From: Nitrosopumilus sp.
Lineage (GTDB): Archaea; Thermoproteota; Nitrososphaeria; Nitrososphaerales; Nitrosopumilaceae
Length of the DNA: 64,000 nucleotides
Assembly (NCBI GenBank): GCA_963662625.1
Contig: OY759726.1
Span: 1 to 64,000, forward strand
Reading direction: 5' to 3'
This document shows, one piece after another, positions 22,596 to 42,745 of this stretch. The position numbers and the translations under genes are program-made. Position 1 is the stretch's first letter. The number at the start of each line of letters is the position of its first letter. Below the pieces are notes generated by a model that was given only the letters and a program-made list of their open reading frames with translations, did no database searches and was not told where the DNA came from.

Positions 22596-24155
22596 ATGGA
22601 AGCTCTGAATAAAGGTAAGCCTCTAAACGTCAATCTGCTTCAGACTTTGGATAATCTGTTAAAATCATACGTGGAAACGGATCATTTGGACATTCTGGTA
22701 AATGAGGTCATAGCTAATGGATACGATGCATTCAGGGAAAACAGCGTTAAAAACGGCATAATTTCCATCAAGCTAAAAAACATTGGGTCTGAATACTGTA
22801 TTGAGTTTCATAACAATGCGCCACCCATGGGCGAGGACCAATTTATCAAAAAATATCACACCCTTTCAGAGTCTACAAAAACGTTAGGAGATGGGATAGG
22901 CTATGCAGGTGTGGGGGCCAAATTATTTACAGCCTCAAAATACGATGGGGAGATCGTAACCATCACAGGAACAGGAGGGGATGACTTTCTGGCATCCAAA
23001 ATGTATGTTGAAGACTCCAATGTCTTGCATAAAACCTCACAGGATAGCCAACTAAAAGAAATTTTGGACGATCCAAATTATGTTCACAAATATGGAACGG
23101 CCTACAGGGCAAAGTTGACACTTCTTGCATACATGGAATTAAGGGAAAAACTGCCCAAAATCATCCAAACGTGGTGGAATTATTGCCTTTTAACAAAACA
23201 ATTCATGGTTACGGTTAACGGGAAAAAACTATCACCGTGGGAACCCAAGGGTGCTCAAAGATTCAAGCGCACGTTCACTTGGAGAGGCAAGAAAATCCCA
23301 GCAATATGCTATATTTCCAAGAATGCAGTTCCAGAAGATATGCGCCACATAGTCTTGACAGTATATGGAAAGCGGATAGAAAACAACCTGTTGGAAAACC
23401 CGGTTGAGATAAAAGAAGGCTATTCCGACCGGGTTTTCTGCATGGCAGACGTTACGTTTCTTGGCAAGCATTTGAGACTGAATAAAGAATCCTTTGCAAA
23501 AAATCCAGAGACAAGCAAATGCAGAAACAAAATCAAGGAGGGCTTTTGGAAATTTCTGGAAGAGAGGGGATTACTAGCTAAAGATGTCAAGCGAAACACC
23601 GATGCAAACGTAGTGGTCAATGAGCTGACAAAACGACTGGATATCTTGCTGAACAAAAAGGAGTTCATAGATCTGAATCCGTTTTTAAACCCACGTAAGC
23701 GAGATATTCCTGCAAAAGACAGTAATGGAACAATTACCGTTTCAGAGACTTTTGGGGAGGGAACATATTCTGGCACTGGTGGTTCTGGAAGTGGCAGCAG
23801 GGAGGAAACCAATACGATAGACAGTGAAACAAACACGAATGTTGTTCAAGATGATTCTGGAAGGGAGTCAGGTTCAACAAAAAATAAAAGATCAAAAGGT
23901 TTGCAGATCATTCCTGCATTCGATATTAAAACCCATAGTGATGAGGCGTTTGTAGACTTGCTCAGGGGAGGGGTGGTGGTTGACATGGCCCATCCTTTTT
24001 TCATTTTGTGCAACAAAAATCCAACGTTACGGGATTTTAACCTGAATCGAATTTTGATTGAGGCATTAATTAAATTCAAGAACGGGGAGGTTGACTGGGA
24101 TGCGACGCAGACACTGAACAAGTTTAGAGACCTTTTGCACGCGTGTTGGAAATGA
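22596..24155 (+). CDS. GHKL (MORC/MutL-like) ATPase
   Basis: NEVIANGYDA (motif I), HNNAPPM, IGYAGVGAK; low-complexity G/S/T linker before C-terminal domain; AT-rich. Confidence 0.8.
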   Translation: MEALNKGKPLNVNLLQTLDNLLKSYVETDHLDILVNEVIANGYDAFRENSVKNGIISIKLKNIGSEYCIEFHNNAPPMGEDQFIKKYHTLSESTKTLGDGIGYAGVGAKLFTASKYDGEIVTITGTGGDDFLASKMYVEDSNVLHKTSQDSQLKEILDDPNYVHKYGTAYRAKLTLLAYMELREKLPKIIQTWWNYCLLTKQFMVTVNGKKLSPWEPKGAQRFKRTFTWRGKKIPAICYISKNAVPEDMRHIVLTVYGKRIENNLLENPVEIKEGYSDRVFCMADVTFLGKHLRLNKESFAKNPETSKCRNKIKEGFWKFLEERGLLAKDVKRNTDANVVVNELTKRLDILLNKKEFIDLNPFLNPRKRDIPAKDSNGTITVSETFGEGTYSGTGGSGSGSREETNTIDSETNTNVVQDDSGRESGSTKNKRSKGLQIIPAFDIKTHSDEAFVDLLRGGVVVDMAHPFFILCNKNPTLRDFNLNRILIEALIKFKNGEVDWDATQTLNKFRDLLHACWK

Positions 24156-24730
24156 AAATAAGCAAAATCCCCATAGCAATCGTCGAGATAACGACTCCCA
24201 GCGGTGAGACCATCAAGGAAATTATGATAGACGTGCACGATTACCACGAGGTGGACGGAAACCCGTCGGAAAAAATCCAAGATTTTAAGAAAAAATACTT
24301 TGCCATGATTGAAAGGATTAAGAAGTTATTTGGCCAGGATCACAACTGCCCAAGTTCATCATATTATAAAATCGGTGTCTTGTTGCAGAAGTTCAACAAC
24401 GAAATAAAGAATGAGTTTGAGATAAAAAACTACACCGAGGCTGTTTCCAGAGATTTTGGATTGAGCAGGGATTACATAAATGACATTTTGTTAATAGTAG
24501 AAGTCTTTAAGAAGAACCAAATAATCGATGAAATCCCATTTTCATACTATAGGGAGTTGAAAAGAAAGAGAACCGAGCTGAAGGGCATATTTGGAAAGGA
24601 AATTCTACGCCTCAACAAAATGGGAAAGGAAGGAAAACTTCCAGGAAGGGAAAGCTACAAAATGGAATTAATAGACATCATCGAAAACAAACGCCTACAT
24701 CCAAAGACCGGGCTCGACTGTTTTATGTAA
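24152..24730 (+). CDS. Hypothetical protein resembling DUF1016 (YhcG) N-terminal domain
   Basis: ATGA overlap with ATPase stop; YYKIG...VSRDFGLSRDYI...IPFSYYREL resembles YWxIG...LSxDL..GFS...LSWSHY. Confidence 0.55.
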   Translation: MKISKIPIAIVEITTPSGETIKEIMIDVHDYHEVDGNPSEKIQDFKKKYFAMIERIKKLFGQDHNCPSSSYYKIGVLLQKFNNEIKNEFEIKNYTEAVSRDFGLSRDYINDILLIVEVFKKNQIIDEIPFSYYRELKRKRTELKGIFGKEILRLNKMGKEGKLPGRESYKMELIDIIENKRLHPKTGLDCFM

Positions 24731-25646: not shown

Positions 25647-27870
25647 CTACCGGTTAGACGGCATTTTTTTAGCTATTCTGCATTTGATGAACTTCATGGC
25701 CTCTACGATCTCTGCTGGTATTTCTCCAGCAAGCAGCAATTCGTTAATCCTGTCCAAATCAGCGCGGGGCTTGCTGTCTTTTGGAGTGACTTTGGTCCGC
25801 ATTACGTCCTCGATGTCCTTGGTAAAGACATACATGCCGTGCTTTAATGCGATTTTGCGCAATATCTCGACACATCTTGGCTCATACCAAGACTGCCCGG
25901 TGCCGGCGCTTTGCGCATTTTCGCTTGTGTGGGAGATTGATTTTGCCATGTCCTGAATGTCTGCTTTCTCAGAGTCAGACAGCCCCTCGGTCTGCTCCAC
26001 GTATCGGACTACGGGCGATGTCCTGACCTCGGTGCCGTCGATATCTATCTTGGCAGTGCACTCCATGAGGGCATCGTGGTCGAGAATGGCGGCGTGCGGA
26101 ATGCCCAGCCCCTTGGCAAGATTGATCATGAGCGGCATGGAGTCCTTTCCCCCAACGTCTAGAACCGCCCACTCGTTTTCCTCCATGTTCGGGGCGTTTG
26201 GATCAGCATTGTCCGTCATATGCCGATCCGTTTTTTCCAAGACGATCCTATCTGATGGGCCCTCTACCAGGACAACCCCGCGCTGGAATAGGATGCCCCG
26301 CACCTCAGTGTCGTAAAATCTTCTGGTCATTTGCTTGCTTTGCCGCATGGGCCGGATCGCGGCATGAAGGTTGATTGCCCGGGTGTCGCCCCCTGCGGCC
26401 GAAAGCCTCCACGTGCTTTCAAAATTTTCAGAGTTTACGAGAAACGGGGAGTGTGTGATCATTACGACCTGGTTGCAGTTTTTCTGCACCGCCCTGCAGA
26501 CAATATCCATCACGTGTCTTTGCATGATTGGGTGGAGGTTTGACGCGGGCTCGTCTAGCAGGATGATCTTGTTTTGCTGCCCTACCAGTGCAGTCAGCAA
26601 GACCAGCAGTTCTATTGTTCCCGCAGACGCAAACCCGGCCGGGATAGGCATCCCTTTTTTTATAACCTGGATCCCGAGTTCCTGCCTTACGATCCTTTCC
26701 GTTTTATTTTCCATGCCCGAGGGTTGGATGCCGCCGGATCCCTCGCCCCAGTACACAGCCGGCTCTGCAGTAGGTCTGTAGGGGAGCTTGACTTGCTTTG
26801 GGCGAACGATGACGTCCACTTCCATGCGGGTGATTTTCTTGAACTGCGACACGATCTCTTTGAACCTGCCTTTTGTCGGAGGATCGTCGCTTTGGTTTAG
26901 GGAGTGTAAAATCTTGGGCAGGTTTTCCCCCGACACGTTCATCATCTCTTTTTCGTACAGGAGGTCTTCGGGATCCAAGATCGCCTTTGGCCCGGAGCGG
27001 AGGTCTGCTGTCTTGACAATGGACGTCCTAAGTGACATGGCGACCAGCCTCACAAATGTCGCCTGGCGCTCTTCGGGATCGGTTCTGCTGACAAAGTCAC
27101 GAAGGCTCATGAACTCCGGCACCAATTCTCCATTTGCCTCGTATTCGTCTAGTTGGAATCCGCCAGGATCGACAAGGTACTCTTCATCGGTGGCGTCGCA
27201 GACAGAGTCGAATAGCGAAAAAGAAAAGTTACGCAGATCAGGCACTCTACCCTTGTTGCGTGCGAGGAACTCTTTTAGTTCAGGGAACTGCTCCTTTGCC
27301 TCGTGTAAAATGATGGTTTGGAGGTTCCTCACAGAATCGCTGTTCCGCCTTGAGCGTGTTTTCGTGAAATAAGATTCTTGGTAAAAGAGTGTTTTCCCGC
27401 CTTTTGTAATCTTGAAATGGTACTCTGGGCGATGCCTCGTTCTCCCGCTGGCGGTTATTACCACAGTCAGGCTTTCCCCAAAATCCGAAAAGATCTTTTC
27501 GACGTTACCTGACAGTACCTTTCTGACTATTTTTTCTGCCGCCTCTGGGAGCTCCTCCCTGTTGAACGCCAGGCCGCCCATAAAGGCACGAACAGGCAAA
27601 CAGGTTCATCAACGCCTCCCTTTCCTCGCCGTCAAAATCCAGATCCAGTTCAATCCGAATAGGCCGCTCAAAATTTTTGTTGTGGTAGTATGGCTCGGAC
27701 GGCGTGTTCTGCCCGCTCAGCAGGTTTGCTGCCAGTTCGATGGCCCTGAATACGTTGGTTTTTCCAGAGTTGTTGGCGCCGACAATCGTGTTCAGTTTTG
27801 AAAGTTCCAGCTCCTGTACGGCGTTTCCAAACGAAAGGAAGTTCCGTAACCGTATTTTTCTAATCTTCAT
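25647..27870 (-). CDS. OLD-family ATP-dependent nuclease (ABC ATPase plus TOPRIM), apparent frameshift near 27575
   Basis: Walker A GANNSGKT (ORF 27505-27870); LLDEPASNLHP, ITHSP, VEGPSD and LDHD in ORF 25647-27599. Confidence 0.85.
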
Positions 27871-28384: not shown

Positions 28385-29242
28385 GTGTTGGAGCCCAAAC
28401 CCCACCAGTATAGAAAGAACCCGGAGTTCAAGGGGCTAGAGGCATTTGTCTGGGAGTACCTAAACCAGATAGGCAGCACCATACCGCAGATAGAAAAGGG
28501 CAAGGACAGAACGCATGGCGGGGATCCGGGGCAGCGGAAGTCCGGAAACGAGCCGATCTGGCACACCAAGGCAGGCCTGGACGAGTTTGTGGCAAGATCG
28601 CTGAACCTGAGGCTGGAAGACTACGGCGCGGACAAGAGTGCAAATCCGCTATACAAGGCAATAGCAAACGAGATATCCAACCTGCGAAAAAACGACATCC
28701 TCATAGATTGGAAAAAAGTCAAGAAGAGCAATACGGGCATGGGGGTGTGGCGGCTAGACAAGACCAGGATTGAGGAATATGCGCGTGATCGCGTTGAGGA
28801 GGAGATGGGGAGCAGGAACTACTATTCCGTGGGCCTCTCACACATAATATTCGTAAGGCAGAAACAGAACGCATTCCGGGCAGAGCTTTTAAGAGAATAC
28901 TACAGGTGCGTGTTTTGCGCATTCAAACTGGCGGATTACCTGATAGGCGCGCATATTGTGCCATACTCGGTAATGAGAAAGGAGGATGCGGAAAATTCCA
29001 TGAACCCCGCAAACGGGTTGCTGCTGTGCAGGATGTGCGATGCCGCATTTGAGCTCGGTTCCATAACAGTAAACGAGGATCTCAGCATCGAGGTGTCAGA
29101 GTACCTGAAGGAGCAGACCGCCTGTTACGCAAAGTCCTGGATCAGGTCTATCGGCACGGAGATAACCCTGAAAAAGAACCCGCGGCATCAGCCGGATCCC
29201 AAGTACCTCAAATGGAAGAAGGAATTGATACGAGGGGTCTAA
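28385..29242 (+). CDS. HNH endonuclease with helical (possibly winged-helix) N-terminal domain
   Basis: RQKQNAFR...CVFC...GAHIVPY...NGLLLCRMCDAAFE (HNH_2-like). Confidence 0.85.
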   Translation: MLEPKPHQYRKNPEFKGLEAFVWEYLNQIGSTIPQIEKGKDRTHGGDPGQRKSGNEPIWHTKAGLDEFVARSLNLRLEDYGADKSANPLYKAIANEISNLRKNDILIDWKKVKKSNTGMGVWRLDKTRIEEYARDRVEEEMGSRNYYSVGLSHIIFVRQKQNAFRAELLREYYRCVFCAFKLADYLIGAHIVPYSVMRKEDAENSMNPANGLLLCRMCDAAFELGSITVNEDLSIEVSEYLKEQTACYAKSWIRSIGTEITLKKNPRHQPDPKYLKWKKELIRGV

Positions 29243-30137: not shown

Positions 30138-32459
30138 TCAATTGTACGGAAAGTCGGTCCGCATCGGATCAAGAGGACGGTAGCCGACTATTTTAGGCTG
30201 TACCGATCACGGAAGGCCATGACAGGAAGACTTACTGAGGGGTCCCGGAAGTACCTGGTCAGACAGCGAGAGAAGGGCGTGCCGTCATCCCAAGTGGCGC
30301 GGGATCTGGGAATCACCGCCAGGCACGTGCGGAGGCTGTGGGCGAGGTTCCTGGAGACCGGAACGACGGCGGCGGGGATGGGCAGGCCGCGCACCTGCAT
30401 GACCGCCGCCATGATACGGCTGGTCACCGGCGCCCACGGGAGGCGCCCTGCGGGCGCGGTGCGCACCGCGAGGCGCCCCAGGAGGTAGTCTGTTGCACAA
30501 CTGCCAGAAATTGCCGAGTCTAAACAGTTGAACCCCCGGCCCAACCATGTCAAACCGAAAAGGCCTTGGATCACGGCCGCGCACCGTCCCCGTTGGCTGC
30601 GACCGACAACGAGAAATACGTCAGGCGCGGGAGGGGCCTGGCTGTGTCGTATGACCCCGGCTGGGAGGACGACCTGAGGGAGGCCAACGCCGGCAAGGAG
30701 GGCGCCCCGTTCAGGTACGCCGGGGCGCTGGTCATGGCCGCCGCCGCGGTGAGGACCTCGCTCGGGGTCCAGTACAGGCAGCTGTCCGGGCTCCTCGCGG
30801 GGATGCTGGGGGGGCACGGCGCGCCGCACTACTCGGTGCTGGCCAGGAGGATGGCGCGCCTCGACGTGGACATCGGCGGGGGAGTCGTCCGCGTCTCCGG
30901 CGGCGGCCAGCCCATGACCCTGCTGGCCGACGCCACGGGCCTGAAGCAGTGCAACCGGGGCGAGCGGGTACGGAAGAAGCGGGAGGCGAGGCGCGGGTTC
31001 GCCAGGCTGCACCTGCTGGCCGACGCCGACACGAAGAAGATGCCCGCGGCGGTGGTGACCGACGACAGGACGGGCGACTCCCCCATGCTGAAGGAGCTCC
31101 TGGGAACCGTGGCGGGGCCGCGTGGCGGGAAGCCGGACGGGAAGCCGGCGGGGAAGCAGGACAGGCGCATGGCGCTGATCCGCGGGAAGGCAGCCGCGGC
31201 GGGGGATCCCCTGCCGCGCGTGGGCTCGCCCCCGCCCAACCTCCTCGCGAGCGGCGTGGCGCCGCTCGCGCTGCAGTGCGGCCAGCCGCCCGGCTCCCAC
31301 GGGGCGCGCCTGATCGCCGACGGGGCGTACGCGTCGCGGGACAACATGCGGAGGTGCCGCGACATGGGCGTGGGGCCTATCATCCCGGTCAAGGTGGCGT
31401 CCACCGCCAGGGGCAAGGGCGCCGGCGGCGCGTGGGGCGAGGCGGTGCGGGACCAGCTGGGGGGCGGCCCGGAGGCGCGCGTCGACAGGATGGGCACGAG
31501 GGAGAGGGAGGAGAACGTCCGGTACCGGGAGGCCAGGAAGGGGTACGGCAGGAGGTGGCTGATCGAGATAATCATATCGGCGTTCAAGAGGATGTTCGGG
31601 GACCACGCGCGCTCGCGCAGGTGGGAGAACATCGTGCAGGAGGTAAGGCTCAGGGTGGCCCAGTACAACCGGTGGGCGGGGGAGGCGGGGGCGTAGGGAC
31701 TCCAAGCGGCACGGCCTGGCCACGGCCCGGGGATCGTGCCGAGTTGTGCAACAGACTACCAGGAGGGACCATTATATAAGCTACTGCTCCGCATGCCGGA
31801 TATTGAAGAAGGCCGGGGCGGTGGCCGCGTCTGCCGCAAAATCGAGGAGGCGCAAGTGGGTGCGCCACGGGCGCAAATGCCCGGACGCCATGTGGCACGT
31901 CGACTGGCACGGGACGAAGGACCCCCGGTTCAGGGGCCTCCAGCTGGTCGCGTACCTGGACGACGCCTCGCGGTGCGCGGTGGCCGCGCGCGTGTTCACG
32001 CAGGCCACGTCGGAGAACGCCGTGCTGGCGCTCAGGGACGCGATCGGGCGGTTCGGCACGCCGGCCACCGTGCTCTCCGACAACGGCCCGTGCTTCGTGG
32101 GCCGGAACGGCCGCAGGAAGGCCCCTCCCCGGCCGTGGAAGCCCACCGCGTCCGGGGCGGAGCTGCTGGGCCTCGGGATCGAGCTCATAAACTCCAGGCC
32201 GCACCACCCCCAGACCAACGGGAAGGCCGGGAGGTTCTTCCGGAGCGCGGGGGACGGGACATGGCACTACGAGAGCATGTCCGAGTACATGGCGTACTAC
32301 AACGAGGACAGGCCGCGCTTCTCCCTGGACATCGACAACTACCAGACCCCGCTGAAGGCCTTCCATGACAAGGAGGCCGTGGCAGCGATCAGGGAGAGCA
32401 ACCCGGGATGGATGGAGGCGGAGGCGGATGACTAGCGGACCGACTTTTCATATACTACA
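30138..32459 (+). mobile_element. IS481-family element interrupted by IS5 copy 2
   Basis: WHVDW, YLDDASR, SDNG, HPQTNGK motifs; IR core aaagtcggtccgc; perfect 15-bp TSD acaagttacccatac (30123-30137, 32460-32474). Confidence 0.9.
30486..31758 (+). mobile_element. IS5-family element copy 2 (transposase 30566-31696)
   Basis: Perfect TIRs; 8-bp TSD ccaggagg (30478-30485, 31759-31766). Confidence 0.92.
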
Positions 32460-32510: not shown

Positions 32511-33332
32511 ATGGATTTATTGCCAGATCATACTACCCACATCCCGTTATCAGAAATAACCATGGGAAAGAGCCAGGCTCGGCAAAGGAATACCAAGGTG
32601 GATGAAGATGACGACTTGGTTCATAGCATACGTAAGGATGGCCTACACAACCCAATCGTTGTAAAAAAAACTGACGAACACCAATTTGAATTGCTGAGCG
32701 GCCAACGAAGGTTTAGAGTGCATGAAATGCTTCAGAAGCCCACAATCAAGGCATATGTGGTGGAAAAGGATATTGACGAATTTGAGGCAAAAAAAATCTC
32801 GTTTGTGGAAAATGCCGCACGCAGGGATATGAAACATGCAGACTATGTTGACACCATACAGATTTTCATGAACAAGTATAACAACACCAGGACTGTTGCA
32901 GAAGAGCTCGGCATGAGCGTCAACACTGTGAGAAAATACCTGACCATCGGGAGGCTGCCAGAGGCAGTTCAGGCTCAAGTCCAAAATAAAAAAATCACCG
33001 CGGACAACGCGATTAAAGCGCTGGACGCTCTTGGCGGTGACGAAACCAATGTAGATGAAGCGGTCTTACTTGAGACTGCGCAAGAGATGCAAAAACTTGC
33101 ACCGCAATCGAGGAAGAAGATGATCAAGATAAAACAAAATGAACCAAACTTAAGTGCGGCCGATGCTGCCAACAAAGCAAAGAAAAGCACCCAACTTAAC
33201 AGGTTTACTATTGAAGTCCCCTATGAGCAATTGACACGAATAGACAGATTCAAACAAATAAAGGAAATTAGCAAAACCGAAGAGGCAGCAATTGAGCTGA
33301 TTGATCGGGGTCTTGATTCTGCAGAAGCATAA
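32511..33332 (+). CDS. ParB/Spo0J-family protein
   Basis: SIRKDGLHNPIVV...LSGQRRFR (GxRR), ENAARRD, HTH TRTVAEELGMSVNTVRKYL. Confidence 0.9.
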   Translation: MDLLPDHTTHIPLSEITMGKSQARQRNTKVDEDDDLVHSIRKDGLHNPIVVKKTDEHQFELLSGQRRFRVHEMLQKPTIKAYVVEKDIDEFEAKKISFVENAARRDMKHADYVDTIQIFMNKYNNTRTVAEELGMSVNTVRKYLTIGRLPEAVQAQVQNKKITADNAIKALDALGGDETNVDEAVLLETAQEMQKLAPQSRKKMIKIKQNEPNLSAADAANKAKKSTQLNRFTIEVPYEQLTRIDRFKQIKEISKTEEAAIELIDRGLDSAEA

Positions 33333-34090
33333 TGTCCATTCTACAAAGCCCGAAGCGCTTAGCTAAACTACTTGCCAGTATCAACGTATCATATTCTGAA
33401 AGACCAATATCTCCTATACAGGTTGCAGAAGAAATTGGCGAGCTATTAAAAGAGTTAAACGGTGACAAAAACGAACTCAAAAAACGGCTACCGCTATCTC
33501 AGGGCATCATTGATGGGTTTCTGCGTTTGTTAAACCTGCCGGGGAAAATCCAGGACATTATAGTGTGGGGGGAATCCAATAAGAATACGGGCGAGATTTC
33601 TTTTAGTGCCGCAAGCTATATTTGCAAATTAGAAAACAGCGAGGATGTCTTGAAGCTTGTGGGGGCAATGCATGATCTTGACAGGCCCATCACAAAAGAA
33701 GAGATCAAGGACATAATCAGCCTTAAAAAACACAATTCAGGAAAGCCAATCGAAAACTGCATCAATGAAGTGCTTGGCGTGACGAGGCCCACAGTGATCC
33801 AGCATTTTCTTTTTATCAGCGGCATCGACCCTTCAATTGTGAATGAACTAAAGGCAGAATCGCAAAAAAATAACATGAAATTGGATGATTGTGGAATTAA
33901 TGTTCTTTCCAAACTATTTCCCTCGGGTTCATTAAAAGGGGTCAAAATACACGATGACTATTTACAGCTGCATCTGTCCGAAGACGGAAGAAATTTCATG
34001 CGAAGGTATGGCGATTCCAACAACATATCTCGCAAGGATATAATCAACCACATGTTTGAGAAGGGAGCCACTGGAAATGAACAACAATGA
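33332..34090 (+). CDS. ParB-like HTH protein lacking the N-terminal ParB domain
   Basis: RPISPIQVAEEI...ELKKRLPLSQGII..FLRLLNLPGKIQ...ISFSAA mirrors the ParB central HTH region; 1-bp overlap with previous stop. Confidence 0.65.
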   Translation: MSILQSPKRLAKLLASINVSYSERPISPIQVAEEIGELLKELNGDKNELKKRLPLSQGIIDGFLRLLNLPGKIQDIIVWGESNKNTGEISFSAASYICKLENSEDVLKLVGAMHDLDRPITKEEIKDIISLKKHNSGKPIENCINEVLGVTRPTVIQHFLFISGIDPSIVNELKAESQKNNMKLDDCGINVLSKLFPSGSLKGVKIHDDYLQLHLSEDGRNFMRRYGDSNNISRKDIINHMFEKGATGNEQQ

Positions 34091-35126
34091 ACTTTTTTCT
34101 AAAGTCAAAATTACGGAACGCGGTGCAGTTTGTTTAGGAAAATCCCTTGTATGTGACGGGTTTGAACCCGACTACCATGCTGCGGCGTTTACTCATATCC
34201 ACTCTGATCATGTTTCTGACAGTTTCGAAACATGTATGCACCAATACAATGTATACGCCTCAAAAATCACCGGAGACCTGCTGGAGGCCATCACTGAGGA
34301 TACCTATTCTGGAAGAACCCAGTTTAAGCGAATCGATTATGGCGCCCCACAATTGATAAAATTTAATGATCATGGAGATTACTTGGAGCTTTTGGAATCC
34401 AAGCACATGCTGGGCTCAAGCCAGGTATTGCTGCATACCCATGATCAGCTGAAATTGCTTTATTCAGGTGATATCTCTCCAGATGATCATCCTCCCAAAT
34501 GCGATGTCTTAGTTATTGATTCTACTCACGGAGATCCCAGATTTGACAAAATCATCGATAGCGATAGCCTTGAGAGGCGGTTGTTGGACATAGTAGTAGA
34601 ATCAATCGATACCAAAAAACCTGTCTGCATACATGCTCACAGGGGGCAGTTACAAGACATAATGCATATTCTGTCTAACGATTCAAGGATTCTGCCGGAA
34701 GTTAAATTTCTAACCTCAAGCACCGATTTACAGATTGCCGAGGTTTATTGCCGTAACGGCGTTGAAATCAAGAGTTTGATAGATTTGCAATCTTATGAGG
34801 GGGAAACCATAACCAGCAACGGCTACCCATGGGTCGAATTTAGGCCAACTCTTCAGTTTACAAGACCAGAAGATCGAGGCCAAATGACTGGCATTCATGT
34901 ATGCGGTGGTTTTGGCAATGCTACCATAAGGGCCGATGGCAACAAGCACTGGATTGCCAGTGATAGCCACGCGGAGTTTTCTGATTTGTTGCGCTACGTC
35001 AGAGAGGCGGATCCCCAGGTAGTAGTCGTAGACAACCGCAGATCATCTTTAGGAAAAACGCTTGCCGAAAAAATCAACGAGATCGGCTACGAATCTAAGG
35101 CCATGCCCGTATTAGAAAATGACTAA
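34077..35126 (+). CDS. Metallo-beta-lactamase / beta-CASP nuclease
   Basis: THIHSDH, HMLGS, YSGD, IDSTHG and SHAEF motifs. Confidence 0.88.
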   Translation: MNNNELFSKVKITERGAVCLGKSLVCDGFEPDYHAAAFTHIHSDHVSDSFETCMHQYNVYASKITGDLLEAITEDTYSGRTQFKRIDYGAPQLIKFNDHGDYLELLESKHMLGSSQVLLHTHDQLKLLYSGDISPDDHPPKCDVLVIDSTHGDPRFDKIIDSDSLERRLLDIVVESIDTKKPVCIHAHRGQLQDIMHILSNDSRILPEVKFLTSSTDLQIAEVYCRNGVEIKSLIDLQSYEGETITSNGYPWVEFRPTLQFTRPEDRGQMTGIHVCGGFGNATIRADGNKHWIASDSHAEFSDLLRYVREADPQVVVVDNRRSSLGKTLAEKINEIGYESKAMPVLEND

Positions 35127-36480
35127 ATCAAGACAGCATTTTAAACAGTATTTGAAGGCGTTTATCCAACGGGCCCTGTCTGCATGCAAGGAGGAATACC
35201 TGAAAAATAAGCAGAAATATGAGGGCAGAGTCCCCATGGCAGATTTTTCGGGCCGAACACTGTCAATAACGCACAGGGATACGATAGATTACAAAAAACT
35301 GAGTCTCGCGTTAAAGACCTCTATTAAAAAATACCCGGAAGCCAATTCGCTTTTTAAGATCATAAGAAATATCCTAAAGTCCAAGATCAATCAAACCGAA
35401 TCAAAAAACACCAATAAGACGGATGTCGATTACAATGGATTGGATTCCCAGTTATTTTATTGCATATTCCATTATTTAAAAAATTACGGGTTTGAATTCG
35501 ATGAGTCCAACTTTAATGAAACCTTTTCAGCTTTTGATCAATATCTGCACCTGGGTTTTGACAATTACTGCTATCTTACTCCCTTGTATAATTTTGATGG
35601 TGATTTTGAGCACTGCCAGATATCATCCTGCTTGTGGATACAAAAAATCCCAATTAGTTTTTACAGTAAAATCATAAACTTGAATCTGGGCATCCGTGAG
35701 ATTCCGTCTTATCAAAGACAGCTCAAATACGCACTATTTTGTAGTGTTGGGACTAAGACTTCCCCCAGTCCCCCATCTACCGCCCTTAAAAATTTTGAAA
35801 ATACTCTCAATGCACTGAAACTATTTGAACGGGGAGATCCGAGCTTCGGAGATGTGTTTGGAATTCTCTCCAAAGATTGGCCTGGTTACAGTTTGAGCAT
35901 TATAGAGCGCGGTCACGAAAGATCACCTTACTCCTCCAGAAAATACCGCCTAGACGAGAAAAAAGCAAAAGATTTTGCGCATTTTCACGAGAAGTTATTC
36001 GGCAAAATATCCAAGCTAGACAGGAAATCTGGCTTCTTAGAATCTTCAATTCGTCGTTTTGGAATGGCATTTCATCATAGGGAGCCGGTAGATAAGATCG
36101 TGGACCATGTTATCTGCTTGGAGTCTTTGCTGGTTCCAAACGTGGGGGATGCCACCCTCAAACTATCCCATAGAATGTCTTCCCTGTTAGGTGACAACGA
36201 CGCCGAACGTGTATGGATATGGAAGTTTGCAAAGGAGGCCTATAAATTCAGAAGTGGGTACCTACACAAGTCCAAAGAGCGGCCAATTAAAATCGACTCT
36301 CATAATTTAGAATTAGACGAGGTATCTGCTAAATTGGAATGTCTTTCTCAGCTTGCCATCATGCGAGTAATCCAACTATTGCACAAATATGATTCCCAAG
36401 ATCAAATTGTTGATGAACTTGATCAATCGATGTATGACCGCGGTAAATTGAAAAAACTTCAAAGGGTTTGGAAACACTAA
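35119..36480 (+). CDS. ApeA-like HEPN domain protein
   Basis: VICLESLL...LSHRMSSLL...AYKFRSGYLH with an intact RxxxxH motif. Confidence 0.8.
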   Translation: MTKSRQHFKQYLKAFIQRALSACKEEYLKNKQKYEGRVPMADFSGRTLSITHRDTIDYKKLSLALKTSIKKYPEANSLFKIIRNILKSKINQTESKNTNKTDVDYNGLDSQLFYCIFHYLKNYGFEFDESNFNETFSAFDQYLHLGFDNYCYLTPLYNFDGDFEHCQISSCLWIQKIPISFYSKIINLNLGIREIPSYQRQLKYALFCSVGTKTSPSPPSTALKNFENTLNALKLFERGDPSFGDVFGILSKDWPGYSLSIIERGHERSPYSSRKYRLDEKKAKDFAHFHEKLFGKISKLDRKSGFLESSIRRFGMAFHHREPVDKIVDHVICLESLLVPNVGDATLKLSHRMSSLLGDNDAERVWIWKFAKEAYKFRSGYLHKSKERPIKIDSHNLELDEVSAKLECLSQLAIMRVIQLLHKYDSQDQIVDELDQSMYDRGKLKKLQRVWKH

Positions 36481-36578: not shown

Positions 36579-37754
36579 TCAGGAGCCGTTAATTTTTGAG
36601 ATCTGTTTTACGGCTTCCGCTATCTTCCGGGCTGAAAACTCCACCCCGTGATCCGGCTGGTCGCTAAAGCGCCCTATCCCAACACGGATTGACGAGAAAG
36701 CCCGGTCCTCGCCGAACCCCAATGCCATGATCACGTGTGATGGCTCCACGCTTTGGGTGGTGCACGCTGATCCTGTAGATATCGCAACGTGGTCCGAGAC
36801 CGAGTTGATTATGGCCTTGCCTTCCACGCCTGGAAAGTAGAGGTTGAGGTTGCCTGGCAGCCGATCGTCCTTGGGGCCATTGAGTGCCACATCCGCCTGT
36901 CCACGTATGAGATCAAACATCGTGGAAGACAGGCTCCTGAGTATCGTGGCCTCCGAGTGCATCTCCTTGTGTGCGATTTCTGCCGCTTTGCCAAACCCGA
37001 CTATCGCCGGCACGTTTAGGGTTCCAGAGCGCATTCCGTGCTCCTGTCCGCCCCCGTAGACCAGGGGCGATACCCGGACTCGTGGGTGCATGCCCCGAAC
37101 ATATAGCGCGCCTATTCCCTTGGGACCGTACATCTTGTGCGCCGAAAACGACATCAGGTCGATGTTCATGTCTTCGGTGCTGACCGGTATGTGGCCTACT
37201 GCCTGCGCCGCGTCGGTGTGGAACAGTACCCCCTTCTCGTGGGCCATCTTTCCTATGCTTGCGACGTCCTGTATCGTGCCGATCTCGTTGTTTGCGGCCA
37301 TTATGGATATCAGAACCGTCCTGTCCGTTACGGCATCCTCGAGTTCGCCCATGTCGACGAAGCCATGCTCGTCTACCGGCACGTACGTCACTTTTTTCCC
37401 CATGGCCTCCATATGCCTTGCCACGCTTAGCACGGATTCGTGCTCGGTAACGCATGTGATCATGTGATCGCCGGCATCCTCGTACGCATTCATGACGCCG
37501 GATATTGCGAGGTTGTTCGACTCTGTGGCCCCGCTTGTAAAGACAATCTCGTTTTCTTTTGCGCCGATTGTGGCTGCAATGTCTTTTCTTGAAGACGAGA
37601 CTGCCTCGGCGGCCTTGCTGCCGTACACATGATCCGTGCTTGATGCGTTTCCAAAGGAATCCGCAAAGTAGGGCATCATGGCATCAAGCACTCTGGCATC
37701 GAGCGGCGTCGTGGCGTTGTTGTCAAGGTACACGATGTCTTCTAGTTGAGGCAA
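36579..37754 (-). CDS. dndA: Cysteine desulfurase DndA/IscS
   Basis: YLDNNATT, HTDAAQA, SAHKMYGPKG, STGSAC; last gene of the dnd operon. Confidence 0.9.
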   Translation of the reverse strand: MPQLEDIVYLDNNATTPLDARVLDAMMPYFADSFGNASSTDHVYGSKAAEAVSSSRKDIAATIGAKENEIVFTSGATESNNLAISGVMNAYEDAGDHMITCVTEHESVLSVARHMEAMGKKVTYVPVDEHGFVDMGELEDAVTDRTVLISIMAANNEIGTIQDVASIGKMAHEKGVLFHTDAAQAVGHIPVSTEDMNIDLMSFSAHKMYGPKGIGALYVRGMHPRVRVSPLVYGGGQEHGMRSGTLNVPAIVGFGKAAEIAHKEMHSEATILRSLSSTMFDLIRGQADVALNGPKDDRLPGNLNLYFPGVEGKAIINSVSDHVAISTGSACTTQSVEPSHVIMALGFGEDRAFSSIRVGIGRFSDQPDHGVEFSARKIAEAVKQISKINGS

Positions 37755-38125
37755 TTCTCCCGCTCCTGTAGTATGACGCGCTCAAAGTCGGACATGTCGT
37801 GTATGCGGGCAAACAGCGCTATGGTTCCGCGGTTAAAATGCGCACGCACCATCCTGTTCATCCACATGTTGGGGTTGAACCCGTCCCTCCTCAGTCGCTG
37901 GATCATCAGCGCCATGAACATGTCCTCGTAGTCTCCGAACAGCACGGATGGGTGTATCTCCGATCCCTTCTCGTCGAACTCGTCCGGGTTTGGGGGGGAG
38001 GGGTCGTTTAGCGACATGCATATTGCGAACCTCCCCATTATGTTGGGGGCCAGGCCTGTCCTCGACTTTAGCTGCGCAAGCAGGTTCTGCGAGCGCGAAC
38101 TCATCCTAAGCCTAGCGAACCGCAA
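37742..38125 (-). CDS. dndE: DNA phosphorothioation protein DndE
   Basis: LKSRTGLAPNIMGRFAICMSL...RAHFNRG; position after dndD; TTG start inferred. Confidence 0.88.
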   Translation of the reverse strand: MRFARLRMSSRSQNLLAQLKSRTGLAPNIMGRFAICMSLNDPSPPNPDEFDEKGSEIHPSVLFGDYEDMFMALMIQRLRRDGFNPNMWMNRMVRAHFNRGTIALFARIHDMSDFERVILQERENCLN

Positions 38126-40157
38126 CAACCCGGCGTCCCCCCTCGTTCCAGAAGTAGCTATCGTGCTTCTTCGTAGATCCCTTGCTATCAACATATTCCA
38201 AGGCATATGACCGCATCAGGTGGGGCTTCAGTTTTTTGTAGTCCCGGTATTCAATCTCCTTGTCGGTGGAGAAGATTAAGATCTGGTGCGATGCTTTGGG
38301 AAGGAACTTGGCCATGATGTTTGTTCTGTGCTTCCCGTCAAGCCGTGCCAGCGGGGTATCTATGACAAACGGCAGTGGCCTGCCGGAGGTCTTTGCCAGT
38401 GACCACAGGACAGACATTGCAAACATCTGCTTCTCGCCCTCGGACAGGATATCTTTTTGTAGCGTGGAGCCGTTTTCCCTAAACAAAGTTATCTCAAACG
38501 TGTCAGGGTTGACCACGACCTTCTCGACCAGGTTTTTCTTATGCATGAGCAGTTTGAGATAGCCCAGCACATAGCCCTCCAAGAGCCGAATTTTTTTGTG
38601 TTTTAGTTTCTCGGCAAACTCCTCCAAGGCGCTCTGGACCTTCTGGGTTAGTTCTACACGGATTTCAGCCTTTTCGTTATCGTATATCTCAGATGTCAGG
38701 GCTTGTATCTTGTTGTCAAGATGCCGCTTCAGGGACGTCTCGCTCGCTATTTTTTCCTTCATGTGTGAGAACCGTACTGACAGTTCGCCCTTTTGCGACT
38801 GGGCATTTCCAATATCTGAAACCAGCGAGCTGATCTCGTCATCACGGGGGGCGCTTTCGATGGACACCTCCAGCCTGTTCATCTCCTCTGCCACCTTGAC
38901 GAGGGTTTTCGTGTGTTTTCTGAGTGCCGAGATGGCATCGGTGTTGGCTTCGTCAATTATGGACATCATCCTGGATGCCTGGGAGGCCGAAAAATCAAAC
39001 ACGGGCTTGGGGACCGCTTTGGCGCGGGTCTTTTCCTTCCGGAGCATGGAGGACATGGCGGATACGGCCGCATCAATGTGACGCCTCTCGAGCCCGGACT
39101 CTTTCCAGAATTGCGCGGTCTTGATCTTGGAAGCGATATGGCTTAGCTTGGAGTCTACCAGATTGTCGCCGGCCAGTTGCTGCTGTATTGATTCATCCTC
39201 CTTGATCTGTTCAGATAACCTCACGAGGTCGTCTGGGATCATTGCAAAGGGCAGGGTTCCAGAGCAGAGCTCTGCCACGTCTTGTCGGACATGCTCATAC
39301 ACTGCCTTTTTTGCCGCAAGCTTCCCCCTGGCAGCATCACGTCCACTGGCAAACGTGCCCCCGATGCCAGAAATCTTGCCTTCCAGGACCTCGATCTCCT
39401 GATCTAGCCGATCCATGTCGTTTTGCAGGGCGGCGGACTTTTCTTCCAGGTTGGCAATCGTGCGCATTGCATCGGCTTTCTCCTTTTCGTATCTGTCGCA
39501 GTCCTGCCTCAGGTGGTCGCTTTTCTTGGTGAGGTTCCTCGCAAGGTTGATCCTCAGGTCGGTGCGGAGCTGCTCTACAAGATCTATGCCCAGAAGGGAT
39601 TTGAAGGATTCCTTGATCGCTATGTCCTCGGTTCCTTCCTTGGCAATCTCCACTATCTTTTCGCCGTCGAAAAAGAACAGGTTTGCTATCCCCTTTGGAA
39701 TCAAGCCCTCTACGAACGACTGCCAGTGGGACTTTTCTATGTCTTCCAATGGGGCGAACTCGGCATCATCCGACGTGCGTTTTTTGACGTCAAGCGTCTC
39801 CTCTATGGAGCCCTCTTCTTTTTTCCAGAAGCGCTCCACCCGGTATTCGGCGACCTTACCGTCGTGAAAGAACTTGAATTGCACGGTGATCGACGCGTGG
39901 TCGGCAGGGGTTAGGCTCTTGGCGTACCGGTGAATCTTGCGTGCGAGGAACTTTCTGTATTCTTTTTTGGACACCCGTCTGCCCAGGGCAGATATGCCGT
40001 AAAGGCATATGGTCATGGATTCAAAGAGGGTGGTCTTCCCGGCCCCGTTTGTTCCGCCAATCAGTATAATGGGCTTTTGGGCGGTACATGTAAAGTCAAA
40101 CTCGTTTTTCCCCCTATATACGCCGTAATCCTGCAACACGATGCGCGTGACTATCAA
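38112..40157 (-). CDS. dndD: DNA phosphorothioation SMC-like ATPase DndD
   Basis: GGTNGAGKTT, FFFDGEKI, LSEGEKQ, VIDTPLARLD, FSTDKEI. Confidence 0.95.
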   Translation of the reverse strand: MIVTRIVLQDYGVYRGKNEFDFTCTAQKPIILIGGTNGAGKTTLFESMTICLYGISALGRRVSKKEYRKFLARKIHRYAKSLTPADHASITVQFKFFHDGKVAEYRVERFWKKEEGSIEETLDVKKRTSDDAEFAPLEDIEKSHWQSFVEGLIPKGIANLFFFDGEKIVEIAKEGTEDIAIKESFKSLLGIDLVEQLRTDLRINLARNLTKKSDHLRQDCDRYEKEKADAMRTIANLEEKSAALQNDMDRLDQEIEVLEGKISGIGGTFASGRDAARGKLAAKKAVYEHVRQDVAELCSGTLPFAMIPDDLVRLSEQIKEDESIQQQLAGDNLVDSKLSHIASKIKTAQFWKESGLERRHIDAAVSAMSSMLRKEKTRAKAVPKPVFDFSASQASRMMSIIDEANTDAISALRKHTKTLVKVAEEMNRLEVSIESAPRDDEISSLVSDIGNAQSQKGELSVRFSHMKEKIASETSLKRHLDNKIQALTSEIYDNEKAEIRVELTQKVQSALEEFAEKLKHKKIRLLEGYVLGYLKLLMHKKNLVEKVVVNPDTFEITLFRENGSTLQKDILSEGEKQMFAMSVLWSLAKTSGRPLPFVIDTPLARLDGKHRTNIMAKFLPKASHQILIFSTDKEIEYRDYKKLKPHLMRSYALEYVDSKGSTKKHDSYFWNEGGRRVVAVR

Positions 40158-41659
40158 CGGTTGTTCACCAGGCTGCGTTTTGAGTGATTTCGTGATTCCA
40201 AATCACGGATGATCTCTGGCATGTCATCCCTCCATTCCTCTGCGAGTATCTTGTTGATCTTGGGGTATATCTTGGAATGCTGCACCATGCCTTGTGATTC
40301 GTGTTCTGCATTGAGCAGTTTAGACACCAAAAGGGCAGGAACGTCGTTTTGTTGGCAAATTTCCTCCAGCAGGTCCTGCTCCACCACGCCGAATACTCCA
40401 AGATCCTCCTGGGGCGGGACGAGTTTTTCGCCCATGATCTTTTCGTAGATCTGGTATGCCGTATTCTTCCAGTCGCCCCTCTCCATCCTCCATATCCTTT
40501 GGATCTCATGGATCTCATCCTCCAAGATTAGCATCATGTACGGGTCTGGCCCGTCCTGCCTGATTTTTTTCTGGGCTTTTAGTAGTTTCTTTAGAAATTC
40601 CTTGCAAAAGTCCATCGTGTATGGGCCAGGAACCAGTCTGTTGTGCGGATCGTCGTAGTCAATGCCCTCTGGCTCTTTTACGGATTCGAGCATCTTCTTG
40701 TCAAACCCCTTCCTGCGTCCGTCGTCGATGAGCTTCATCTGCCCGGTCCTGCGCTTGAACGAGCGCACCTCCTTCCTCTTGGCAGGCTCTTGCGTGGCCT
40801 TGAGATCCTCGCGCAGTTCAAGCAGGGGCTCCATCCAGCCCTCACCGTTTTCGATCGTGTTGCGCAGGGACGAGTCATCGTTGACCACGGTGCACGTCCA
40901 GCATCCGAACCTGCTGTTTCCACAGGACGGAGTGCTGGCATCCACCACCAGTGGGCATTCCGAGGCGTTTGCGTTCTGGTACATTGCCAGCAGATCCCTG
41001 TTGTTGGAGCCCCACGGGTTTTTTTTCTGCAGCAGGTAATTCCACACATCCTTGGACGTGAAATCACGCAGGGGCGTATACACATAGGTCTGGGCAAACT
41101 TCGAGTGCCGCGAGAGCAGGCTTCCCTCAATCTCATAGAGGTTCATTAGCTGTTGTCGGGAACCGCTCTCGTCCTTCCTGGTTCCCAGAACCACAATTGC
41201 CTCGCCATATTCCGATACCCTGTCCTGTATGAACCTGTCCGCATTACGTATCTTGAGCCTCTCCGTGCACCACCTGAACAGGTTGCTTGGGGCCGGGAAT
41301 CCCTTTCCAAGGAGGCACACCCAGAAAGTATCCTCCATTAGAGGACGGACCAGGTTTGTTGATATCGGAAGGCGTGATTTTTTGGATGCTTTTTCCATCA
41401 TGTCGAGTGTGCTGGTGATTTGCTCCACAACCTTGGGAGACTCTACCAGCGTGTCAGACGATATTATGAAGATCCGCTTGTGTAGTTTTTTTGCGGGTAG
41501 TTCGGACAACGCCTCCCAGATAAGCTGGACCATGCATGTGGAGTCCTTGCCTCCGCTGAATCCGAGAATCCACGGTCTGTTGTCTGAAAGATATACCTGC
41601 CGGATCTCCTCATAGATGTCCCTCACCTTGCGGGTTTTAAATATAGATTCTGTGGGCAT
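40154..41659 (-). CDS. dndC: DNA phosphorothioation sulfurtransferase DndC
   Basis: WILGFSGGKDST, FRWCTERLKI, ECPLVVD...SCGNSRFGCWTCTVV. Confidence 0.95.
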   Translation of the reverse strand: MPTESIFKTRKVRDIYEEIRQVYLSDNRPWILGFSGGKDSTCMVQLIWEALSELPAKKLHKRIFIISSDTLVESPKVVEQITSTLDMMEKASKKSRLPISTNLVRPLMEDTFWVCLLGKGFPAPSNLFRWCTERLKIRNADRFIQDRVSEYGEAIVVLGTRKDESGSRQQLMNLYEIEGSLLSRHSKFAQTYVYTPLRDFTSKDVWNYLLQKKNPWGSNNRDLLAMYQNANASECPLVVDASTPSCGNSRFGCWTCTVVNDDSSLRNTIENGEGWMEPLLELREDLKATQEPAKRKEVRSFKRRTGQMKLIDDGRRKGFDKKMLESVKEPEGIDYDDPHNRLVPGPYTMDFCKEFLKKLLKAQKKIRQDGPDPYMMLILEDEIHEIQRIWRMERGDWKNTAYQIYEKIMGEKLVPPQEDLGVFGVVEQDLLEEICQQNDVPALLVSKLLNAEHESQGMVQHSKIYPKINKILAEEWRDDMPEIIRDLESRNHSKRSLVNNR

Positions 41660-42745
41660 TCAGGCGTCCATCCCTATGGTTTCAGGCAATCCAAGGCCGA
41701 CTAATATTTCATTGGCTGCCCTCTTGATCCCCAGCCGGTTCTTGATCAGTTTGCCGTCCATGACTACCTTGTCCTGCCAGATCGGGCTGTTTCGCATCCA
41801 GTCGATCTTCTGTAGCCCTCTGATCCGATCTTTCCAGTCAGATCGCTGGACCAGCACATGGCCCACCAGCCCTAGCGCGTTGAGGATGTTTGTGTGTGCA
41901 TGGACGTAGTCCTTCCTCAGGTCATAAGGAGTGAGCTTTTTCTGCACCAGAAGGTTCCACTCGGGTATATTTGATGCCACAGCGTCCCAGTACTCCACTG
42001 CTAGTTTTTGTTTTTCAGCAGAGATCGATTTTGTTGTGGGTTTGAGGCTTAAAAGATACCTTGTCGCATCTGCCACCCCGTTCAAAGTCACAAACTTGGT
42101 TGAGCGGTTGGAGATGTTTGTGCGCTCCATCTCCGTACGCCCGCAAAACACCTCAACGTCATTGACCAGATTGACGATGAATCTTGCAAACGTGTCCCGG
42201 TGGTCATACAGCAGTCCCAGTGACTTGGTTGGCTTGACCGCATGTTTGTTGAGGTCAGCAAACATCTGCTGGCTTCGCTCCAGCCCCCTGTCCTCAAACA
42301 CGACTACAGCCATGCGTTCCATGCCAATGCGTTCGTCGTCCTCGTATGCAGACCGGATTGCGGCGCACCGGTGCTGTCCATCATTGACTAGGATTCTTGC
42401 ACTGCTTGGTATCCTGATCTTTCCCACCTTGCTCTCCGAATTGTTACGTGGAGTAGGCTCAAAGTCTATCTTTTGGTCTACAGAGACCGTAATCGCTGAA
42501 AAGACATAGTTGTCAAGGTTGTCCAGTATGTAAGATGCTATCCTGGGCACGCGTGATTCCCTAATCTTGCGCTGGGCCCTCAAGTGTGCAGGAATTCCGG
42601 AATCCTTGTCAAACTTGAAGTGGTTGCTTATGGTGGCAAAATCAGACATCATGATATAAAACACGCGTCCAGCCTGAATGCCCTTTGTGGCGTCGAACGT
42701 CAGGGAGCTGGCAGCCTCGGCCTCGACATACTGTTGCCTGCTCAT
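41660..42745 (-). CDS. dndB: DndB regulator (DGQHR domain)
   Basis: GIQAGR, RAQRK, NDGQHR, QQMFADLN, LYDHRD. Confidence 0.95.
   Translation of the reverse strand: MSRQQYVEAEAASSLTFDATKGIQAGRVFYIMMSDFATISNHFKFDKDSGIPAHLRAQRKIRESRVPRIASYILDNLDNYVFSAITVSVDQKIDFEPTPRNNSESKVGKIRIPSSARILVNDGQHRCAAIRSAYEDDERIGMERMAVVVFEDRGLERSQQMFADLNKHAVKPTKSLGLLYDHRDTFARFIVNLVNDVEVFCGRTEMERTNISNRSTKFVTLNGVADATRYLLSLKPTTKSISAEKQKLAVEYWDAVASNIPEWNLLVQKKLTPYDLRKDYVHAHTNILNALGLVGHVLVQRSDWKDRIRGLQKIDWMRNSPIWQDKVVMDGKLIKNRLGIKRAANEILVGLGLPETIGMDA

Follow-up and report, generated by a model that had tools for sequence, protein, structure and literature searches.

In the first 64 kb (64,000 nucleotides; here called the window) of the 1.86-Mb single-contig genome of the archaeon Nitrosopumilus sp., a cassette of four genes occupies positions 32511-36480 and faces a dndBCDEA cluster, the gene set for phosphorothioate (PT) modification of the DNA backbone. 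The archaeal model of SSU rRNA outscores the bacterial model here, with 1456 against 1085 bits. The cassette codes for a ParB/Noc-type protein (ParB1), a shortened ParB paralogue (ParB2), a beta-CASP nuclease and a protein with a predicted HEPN fold (protein 4), and it is probably a defence effector that is functionally tied to the adjacent modification genes. An earlier note, made from the sequence of the window, had proposed an unnamed system at this place, and several of its statements are taken up below. The four genes are as follows.

32511..33332, plus strand: ParB1, 273 amino acids (aa), of the ParB/Noc type, with an N-terminal nucleoside triphosphate (NTP)-binding ParB/Srx domain, an HTH (helix-turn-helix) domain and a C-terminal region
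33332..34090, plus strand: ParB2, 252 aa, a truncated ParB paralogue that starts at Box III/HTH, without boxes I and II and with an extra C-terminal part
34077..35126, plus strand (a TTG start at 34056 is also open): beta-CASP metallo-beta-lactamase (MBL) nuclease, 349 aa from the ATG at 34077
35119..36480, plus strand: protein 4, 453 aa, with a helical N-terminal part, a mixed middle part and a predicted C-terminal HEPN-fold domain (~295-425) containing R378-x4-H383

All four open reading frames (ORFs), at 32511-33332, 33332-34090, 34056/34077-35126 and 35119-36480, lie on the plus strand and are open and full length. The ParB1 stop and the ParB2 start have a TAATG in common, the nuclease ATG at 34077 gives a 14-nt overlap with the end of ParB2, and the ATG of the HEPN-protein gene at 35119 gives an 8-nt overlap with the end of the nuclease gene. 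Because these three junctions overlap, the cassette is a translationally coupled four-gene operon. Of the two nuclease starts, the ATG is the likelier, since the alignments with homologues begin at residue 8 of the protein read from TTG. The earlier note had described four intact, overlapping genes with unbroken GxRR, HxHxDH and RxxxxH motifs, and this description agrees with the ORFs, with the junctions as read from the sequence and with the presence of GQRR, HIHSDH and RSGYLH. The stop of the HEPN-protein gene lies at 36480, and the stop codon of dndA begins at 36579, so that the 98 bp given earlier between these convergent genes agree with the coordinates. The dnd genes, all five recognized by both Pfam and PADLOC, are the following.

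36579..37754, minus strand: dndA, cysteine desulfurase (Pfam Aminotran_5, 7.4e-85), convergent with the cassette
37742..38206, minus strand: dndE (Pfam DndE, 1.3e-21), the sole DndE-family match in the genome
38112..40157, minus strand: dndD, ABC/SMC-like ATPase (Pfam AAA_23 and SMC_N; PADLOC DndD, 4.5e-184)
40154..41659, minus strand: dndC, PAPS-reductase-like (Pfam PAPS_reduct, 7.5e-12; Sp-DndD, 2.2e-6)
41660..42745, minus strand: dndB, ParB-superfamily regulator of dnd (Pfam DndB, 3.8e-111; PADLOC DndB, 6.1e-122)

ParB1 matches Pfam ParB_N (1.4e-14) and HTH_ParB (1e-5) and scores 80 bits with TIGR00180, which is over the cut-off of that model; a profile of 20 homologues compared with solved structures found Noc (7ol9, 4e-24) as the best match, and also ParB (7bnk), Spo0J and KorB. 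R24, the GQRR motif (G64-Q65-R66-R67), S97 and D111 are invariant in 20/20 sequences, and 90% or more of them have E100; these residues constitute what we take to be the nucleotide-binding boxes I-III of ParB clamps. The protein thus carries the complete ParB/Srx clamp arrangement, a Box I Arg, a Box II GxRR and a Box III E-N followed by the HTH. ParB2, in turn, has HTH_ParB (1.7e-6) as its only Pfam match. Residues 103-268 of ParB1 align to 22-196 of ParB2 in a profile-profile comparison (probability 95.5%, E 1.4e-8), and ParB2 aligns to residues 99-179 of Spo0J (6sdk, 1.2e-4) beginning at the Box III/HTH border; because the alignments start there, ParB2 is taken to be a paralogue that has lost the NTPase head and gained ~55 C-terminal residues. 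The pair of a ParB and an HTH-only ParB recognized in the earlier note is thereby confirmed. At E<=1e-3, the ParB2 family accounts for 777 of 1.84 billion representative clusters, and almost all of these are 230-260 aa long. That both ParB1 and ParB2 may end in a ribbon-helix-helix is an idea drawn from reading the sequences and from a ParG match at E 0.3.

The presence of ParB proteins raises the question of whether the cassette is a ParB-based partition or addiction module that maintains a mobile element. Transposases adjoin it, and its low G+C content points to horizontal transfer: the G+C content is 63-74% across most of the window and 42-56% in a stretch at ~22-44 kb, the contrast for the island being 0.42-0.48 against 0.65-0.74, and the cassette resides in this horizontally acquired island alongside an OLD-family nuclease, an HNH nuclease and transposases/insertion sequence (IS) elements. 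A role in element maintenance is nevertheless very improbable. Profile searches with Pfam AAA_31 and CbiA detected no ParA-family gene in the window, as the earlier note had also stated, and the nearest match lies 284 kb away, the same searches being positive in 14/14 control genomes; an inverted-repeat search found no palindrome suited as a parS site; no relatives were found in 72,556 plasmids (PLSDB), 50,697 phage records or IMG/VR; and the flanks of the cassette differ between genomes apart from dnd.

The nuclease of the window alone has no Pfam match. A profile of 30 sequences matched 42 distinct PDB sequences at E<=0.01, and without exception these were nucleases of the beta-CASP type or of related metallo-beta-lactamase types, including aCPSF1 (3af5, 6e-25), FttA (4e-20) and Cas14 of type VII CRISPR (8yhd, 4e-19 over positions 34-338), and further CPSF-73, SNM1A, Apollo, Artemis and RNase J. 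In the HIHSDH motif, H40 is invariant and H42, D44 and H45 are present in at least 90% of the 30 sequences, in which D27, H110, D132, D148 and H298 are also conserved; with residues assigned to motifs as read from the alignment, these supply MBL motifs 1-4 (D, HxHxDH, H, D) and beta-CASP motifs A (D/E) and B (H). The structure-profile matches and the conserved metal-binding residues uphold the beta-CASP label that the protein had been given earlier. Its relatives form 76 other clusters, and in a tree the cassette nucleases make up a clade of their own beside housekeeping archaeal paralogues.

At L069 and L075, from families of the phylum other than that of the window, the gene of a ~340-aa housekeeping beta-CASP protein is part of a conserved run of AAA_17, PF01877 RNA-binding, beta-CASP and HMG-CoA reductase genes, and such proteins are present in whole families (e.g. 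24/25, 16/16 and 15/15 genomes); in the family of the window, the same search matched 1/56 genomes, and that match was a cassette nuclease and not this paralogue. A search across the phylum with profile A3, which matched 167/401 genomes, is uninformative on the cassette, because 9/11 of the loci inspected held the housekeeping paralogue without ParB neighbours. An apparent ParB2-nuclease fusion at L040 was rejected, as a stop codon separates the two genes, and no fused relatives of the nuclease of greater length were found among proteins of 612-2000 aa, which is weak evidence.

Protein 4 matches no Pfam, NCBIfam or PADLOC family, its Pfam search being empty at E<=1 in 20/20 homologues, and its sequence profile gave no meaningful match in the PDB; it is rare, 5.8 billion proteins having yielded 8 further clusters. 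A confident AlphaFold2 model built on an alignment of 20 sequences (pLDDT 85.9, pTM 0.82) was compared with known structures in a VIA-align exhaustive search, in which 12 of the 13 best rows were HEPN-domain proteins, all on residues ~295-425 with Z 8.3-6.5 (4nqf_B, 8.3; 8xdj_A, 8.0; Csm6, 7.7; a HEPN-MNT toxin, 7.2); the twelfth row, 2jpu, bears no HEPN label, and residues 1-290 had no convincing structural relative in this search. R378 and H383 of RSGYLH are invariant in 20/20 sequences, as are G244, R313, L334, E335, R352 and Y375. The predicted domain has the four-helix up-and-down core with an Rx4-6H motif that characterizes HEPN domains, and with a Z score that is moderate and a Foldseek search that came back blank, we accept protein 4 as a putative HEPN protein on fold and motif. 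The protein had previously been called ApeA-like; the HEPN part of this description is supported by the fold and the invariant RxxxxH, but the ApeA part is not, since neither Pfam nor PADLOC, both of which presumably contain an ApeA model, returned a match.

Conservation of the cassette was analyzed in 401 genomes of the archaeal family of the window, with thresholds of E<=1e-20 for the nuclease and E<=1e-40 for dndC. The nuclease was found in 22/401 genomes, belonging to 8 of 27 genera, at 25 places, and was not found in the two other genomes of the genus of the window. The gene context was determined at 24 of the 25 places (the window being the 24th, and the 25th lying on a 2.5-kb contig), with flanks of up to ~9.4 kb on each side, and genes were detected by tblastn with the proteins of the window at E 1e-4. 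The order ParB1-ParB2-nuclease is present at 22/24 loci, with nuclease identities from 67% down to 26%; L053 at both ParB positions and L057 at the ParB1 position have ORFs of the right size that fall below detection at this threshold. The same core order occurs on the metagenome contigs L004 and L005, in a co-directional nine-gene form. The HEPN-protein gene follows the nuclease gene at 14/24 places, so of the four-gene unit proposed earlier, the ParB1-ParB2-nuclease core is conserved and the HEPN gene is an accessory.

Within the family, the cassette is nearly exclusive to genomes that carry dnd: dndC is present in 63/401 genomes overall and in 21 of the 22 nuclease-positive genomes, and the remaining one is a 140-contig assembly in which the cassette lies at a contig end. 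The odds ratio of 168 for the co-occurrence is overstated, because the genomes are kin and not independent. dndC/dndD lie inside the flanks at 20/24 loci. At 9 of these the cassette stands behind dndA and runs in the same direction, at 8 the two converge as in the window, and at 3 the cassette diverges from dndB; L060 is cut off by a contig border. That the core order persists down to ~26% identity, together with the co-occurrence with dnd in genomes and in flanks, supports the suggestion of the earlier note that this is an unnamed system, either a PT-linked effector or an independent defence.

More telling than the co-occurrence count is the evidence that the association has arisen repeatedly. 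In a maximum-likelihood tree of 30 nuclease sequences, the orientation of the cassette relative to dnd changes within three separate clades. Furthermore, the identities of DndC and of the nuclease to their counterparts in the window are uncorrelated over 19 loci (rho -0.32, p 0.18), and the dnd clusters most similar to that of the window (DndC 75-79%) adjoin the most distant nucleases (26-28%). Because these identities are uncorrelated, the pairing of the cassette with dnd must have been re-made repeatedly between lineages, and not inherited once. We consider the comparative support for a link to phosphorothioation to be unusually strong.

The position occupied by the cassette is also informative. 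Of the 42 genomes that have dndC but no cassette, 16 were fetched, and 10 ORFs, drawn from 6 of these loci, were scanned in PADLOC. Behind dndA, PbeA was found at L083 (9e-184) and L094 (1.3e-167), the latter with PbeC as well (6e-71), and HEC-06/Orf5/SspE-like proteins (~1e-70) were found at L084 and L093; L092 gave weak helicase matches only, and the 756-aa ORF of L085 and the 801-aa ORF of L083 had no PADLOC match. Distant DndD-like paralogues, detected by tblastn, lie behind dndA at L083, L087, L089, L090 and L096, and these may correspond to PbeC-type ATPases. Several PADLOC PbeC models score the genuine DndD of the window almost as highly as the DndD models do (1.9e-174 vs 4.5e-184), and the ranking of PbeC calls from this library therefore needs to be checked. 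Since PbeA/PbeC or SspE-like genes fill the slot elsewhere, the cassette alternates with known PT-linked effectors at one genomic position. This placement, shared with recognized sulfur-dependent antiviral genes of related genomes, makes the cassette a probable new antiviral partner of PT.

The tight linkage to dnd could also be that of a non-defence accessory of the PT pathway, for instance a nuclease, guided by ParB, with a part in processing or repairing DNA at PT sites or in setting the PT level, comparable with DndB. ParB-fold proteins are already described as regulators of dnd (PMC10853773, PMC12704722), and the nearest named NCBIfam model of the nuclease is the ligase-associated DNA-damage exonuclease TIGR04122 (1e-9, far below its cut-off). 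However, dndB is already present in the cluster of the window and in most cassette-linked clusters, 42/63 dndC-positive genomes manage without the cassette, and the core also occurs in a genome without dndC (G539, described below); the HEPN and SNF2 additions and the exchange with Pbe or SspE-like genes are, moreover, typical of effectors. We thus regard an accessory role as distinctly improbable.

The cassette is not a described system within the libraries and the literature covered. PADLOC names no Pbe, Dnd, Ssp or other system for the four proteins and gives no match to DndF, DndG or DndH, the sole match being that of 27 residues of the ParB1 HTH to mad1, though it names PbeA and PbeC in the sister loci; in this respect as well, the judgement that the combination is unnamed holds. 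Neither TIGR03237 (dnd_assoc_2) nor TIGR03238 (dnd_assoc_3) matched in the genome, a weak negative, since 14 control genomes were equally silent. The portions available of the literature on Dnd neighbourhoods (PMC10853773), HEPN proteins, ParB folds (PMC12704722), ParA immunity, BREX and the dnd genes of ammonia oxidizers mention no ParB-ParB-beta-CASP cassette; supplementary tables may list such cassettes.

The three-gene core is conserved with optional parts, of which the HEPN-protein gene is one and a set of upstream genes another. At 9/24 places, an SNF2 helicase (~587 aa; Pfam SNF2-rel_dom, 1.3e-36; PADLOC BrxHI, 4.7e-83, and DrmD, 1.2e-75) and a protein of ~266 aa of no known family are encoded upstream of ParB1. 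In the window, a high-G+C (0.69) patch at 30566-32435 (plus strand), with a DDE_Tnp_1 transposase and an rve-integrase ORF, lies directly upstream of ParB1, and because sister loci carry the SNF2 and 266-aa genes at this position, we speculate that the insertion may have displaced or replaced them. L054 has in the SNF2 position, upstream of ParB1, a fusion of a PD-(D/E)XK nuclease domain with an ATPase of the GHKL type (HATPase_c_3, 1.6e-16; 12593-14656, minus strand). One genome carries two complete dnd clusters in tandem, ~13 kb apart (L046/L047, G314:C1:1652000-1685100), each with a cassette of its own, and the two cassettes are of different subtypes, with and without the SNF2 and 266-aa proteins. 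At L044 (6794-9388, minus strand), the HEPN-protein gene is split by ~1.3 kb containing a same-strand 312-aa ORF, probably an insertion. Two other candidates for a counterpart of protein 4, the 488-aa ORF after the nuclease at L048 and the 504-aa ORF after ParB2 at L080, show no likeness to it.

In a phylum-wide sample, ParB2 was found in 4/401 genomes. G539, from another family and 99% complete, has ParB1-ParB2-nuclease, and G016 has ParB1-ParB2 followed by unrelated ORFs of 504 and 191 aa, with dndC 85 kb away. The core of G539 is faced, at L081, by a gene for a 595-aa fusion of ParB_N with an N6_N4 methyltransferase (11406-13193, minus strand); genes for another ParB, of 391 aa, and for a second protein of the MBL/RMMBL kind, of 455 aa, lie nearby. 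Because this core adjoins a methyltransferase in a genome without dndC, its link is probably to DNA modification in general and not to PT alone, which suggests, by analogy with what has been argued for PbeABCD, that the core may be a general modification-linked module.

Taken together, we favour, with a probability of roughly 60%, the reading that the module is a defence effector whose function is tied to the modification system next to it, acting by restriction or abortive infection, and that in this genome the modification system is dndBCDEA. The cassette would then be the effector arm, in the role that DndFGH, PbeABCD or SspE has elsewhere. ParB1 would work as a ParB/Noc-type, NTP-dependent clamp, first loading onto DNA and then spreading or sliding; ParB folds can bind CTP, ATP or GTP (PMC12704722). 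ParB2, without the NTPase head, may serve as an adaptor that couples DNA-bound ParB1 to the beta-CASP nuclease, and the ParB pair may in this way gate the nucleases, as the earlier note had suggested. The nuclease would cut or processively degrade DNA that lacks the PT marks of the host, and PT in host DNA would halt loading, sliding or cleavage. The HEPN protein would be a second, accessory effector of the RNase type, able to shut down an infected cell when the first line has failed, and the sister versions would add an SNF2 translocase and the 266-aa protein of no known family. We infer these roles, from telling self and non-self apart through PT to the back-up RNase, from protein families and gene neighbourhoods.

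Several observations weigh against this reading. The counts of co-occurrence were made among related genomes within a single family, and two-thirds of the dndC-positive genomes (42/63) are without the cassette. Adjacency to PT genes is not obligatory: three places have no dnd cluster nearby, namely L043, where only a dndB fragment adjoins and dndC is on another contig, and L058 and L059, which are second copies far from dnd; together with the dndC-less core of G539, these stand apart from dnd clusters. As for the proteins, beta-CASP members that act on RNA have His at motif C and those that act on DNA have Val, and the column of the nuclease that aligns to the motif C His of aCPSF1 holds Asn (VVVVDN), which belongs to neither class; the nearest relatives outside the cassette are housekeeping archaeal beta-CASP proteins in an RNA-related neighbourhood. 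Because of this Asn and of these RNA-associated relatives, DNA is not established as the substrate of the nuclease. The structural match of protein 4 to HEPN domains is moderate (Z 8.3), with no HEPN sequence family matching, and Foldseek of the model against the PDB gave nothing at E<=0.001.

Some of these points would be accounted for if the cassette were an independent defence system that does not read PT and stands beside dnd only through shared islands and co-transfer. The dndC-less core of G539 and the orphan copies at L058 and L059 would then be expected, the lineages of dnd and of the cassette are shuffled, and the island in the window also holds the OLD-family nuclease, the HNH nuclease and IS elements. 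We nonetheless consider this rather unlikely, given that dndC occurs in 21/22 of the positive genomes against a background of 63/401, that direct adjacency is kept through at least three orientations and through switches within clades, and that the cassette fills the slot of PbeA/PbeC or SspE-like genes; even in G539, the neighbour is again a DNA-modification enzyme.

A bolder form of the modification-coupled effector, which we put forward tentatively as an unlikely but attractive possibility, is that the nucleotide-switched clamp of ParB serves to scan DNA in an immune system whose signal is a modification of the backbone. ParB1 and ParB2 would load a processive beta-CASP nuclease, and backbone sulfur, which resists metal-dependent nucleases, would stop the enzyme or the clamp. 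If true, this would explain how sparse and partial PT marking can protect a whole genome while unmarked invader DNA is degraded, with a core that could be paired anew with methylation, as in G539, or upgraded with SNF2 or HEPN modules.

The low-G+C island holds further genes. The OLD-family nuclease (ATPase and TOPRIM; 25647-27599, minus strand) matches Pfam OLD-like_TOPRIM (1.1e-13) and PADLOC Old (2.8e-21) and GajA (5.3e-19), with no obvious GajB-type partner adjoining, and the HNH endonuclease (28385-29242, plus strand) matches Pfam HNH_2 (3.4e-10) and PADLOC HNH (3.2e-23). At its start, the island has two ORFs (22596-24730, plus strand) that overlap each other and code for 519 and 195 aa; neither matches a family in Pfam or PADLOC. 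Scanning the window for Rfam families and tRNAs gave no match, and a promoter/terminator scan, which is bacterial and ill-suited to archaea, and the inverted-repeat search yielded nothing above chance.

PT is a widespread DNA mark for which few effector partners are known, namely DndFGH, PbeABCD, SspE/SspFGH and DndI, and many dnd clusters, including those reported in ammonia-oxidizing archaea (PMC6790972, PMC7848895), are without a known partner. In an abundant group of marine archaea, the cassette offers a candidate partner with clear boundaries. If the proposed role is true, it would represent a new effector type, would extend the roles of the ParB nucleotide switch to immunity, and would offer a compact system for studying the protection of self DNA by incomplete PT marking.

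Among the known systems, PbeABCD is the closest in setting. It is an archaeal module for antiviral defence that depends on PT (Xiong et al. 2019, PMC6459918), in which PbeA is a fusion of an HKD nuclease with a superfamily 2 (SF2) helicase, PbeB is small, PbeC is a CxC ABC ATPase and PbeD is DndE-like (PMC10853773). Like the cassette, PbeABCD consists of four genes that adjoin dndCDEA in archaea, takes the same position after dndA in the sister genomes and also occurs without dnd beside methyltransferases (PMC6459918). Unlike in setting, the two have no protein in common. An identity of the cassette with PbeABCD was therefore rejected: the PADLOC library that finds PbeA at L083 and L094 returns no PbeA or PbeC match among the four proteins, none of which is an HKD nuclease fused to an SF2 helicase, and there is no PbeC with a cognate DndE-like PbeD, the single DndE-family gene being the dndE of the dnd cluster.

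The bacterial PT-sensing restriction modules DndFGH, SspE/SspFGH and DndI have the role that we propose for the cassette, that of an effector that spares PT-marked self DNA. SspE couples a ParB-superfamily (DUF262) NTPase head to a nuclease. The folds and the architecture of the DndFGH and Ssp modules are unlike those of the cassette, which combines an HTH-bearing protein of the canonical ParB/Noc type with a beta-CASP nuclease as a separate protein. The individual proteins likewise resemble known families and depart from them. ParB1 aligns with the CTP-dependent clamps ParB, Noc and KorB over the N-terminal and HTH domains and keeps the Box I Arg, GxRR and the Box III E-N, but unlike these clamps it has no ParA partner in the window and no recognized parS, and is paired with a headless paralogue and nucleases. 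The nuclease shares MBL motifs 1-4 and beta-CASP motifs A and B with aCPSF1/FttA, Cas14, SNM1A/Apollo/Artemis and TIGR04122, but is minimal (349 aa), with no KH or added domains and with Asn at motif C. Protein 4 resembles the HEPN abortive-infection RNases (AbiV, HEPN-MNT toxins, Csm6 and ApeA) in its putative C-terminal HEPN domain with RxxxxH and in the large N-terminal part ahead of it, as is seen in many Abi-type HEPN proteins, and differs from them in matching no sequence family, that of ApeA included. The overall kind of system, a modification-coupled and restriction-like one, is thus already known, whereas the canonical ParB clamp, the headless ParB paralogue and the beta-CASP nuclease are parts that are new to PT systems.

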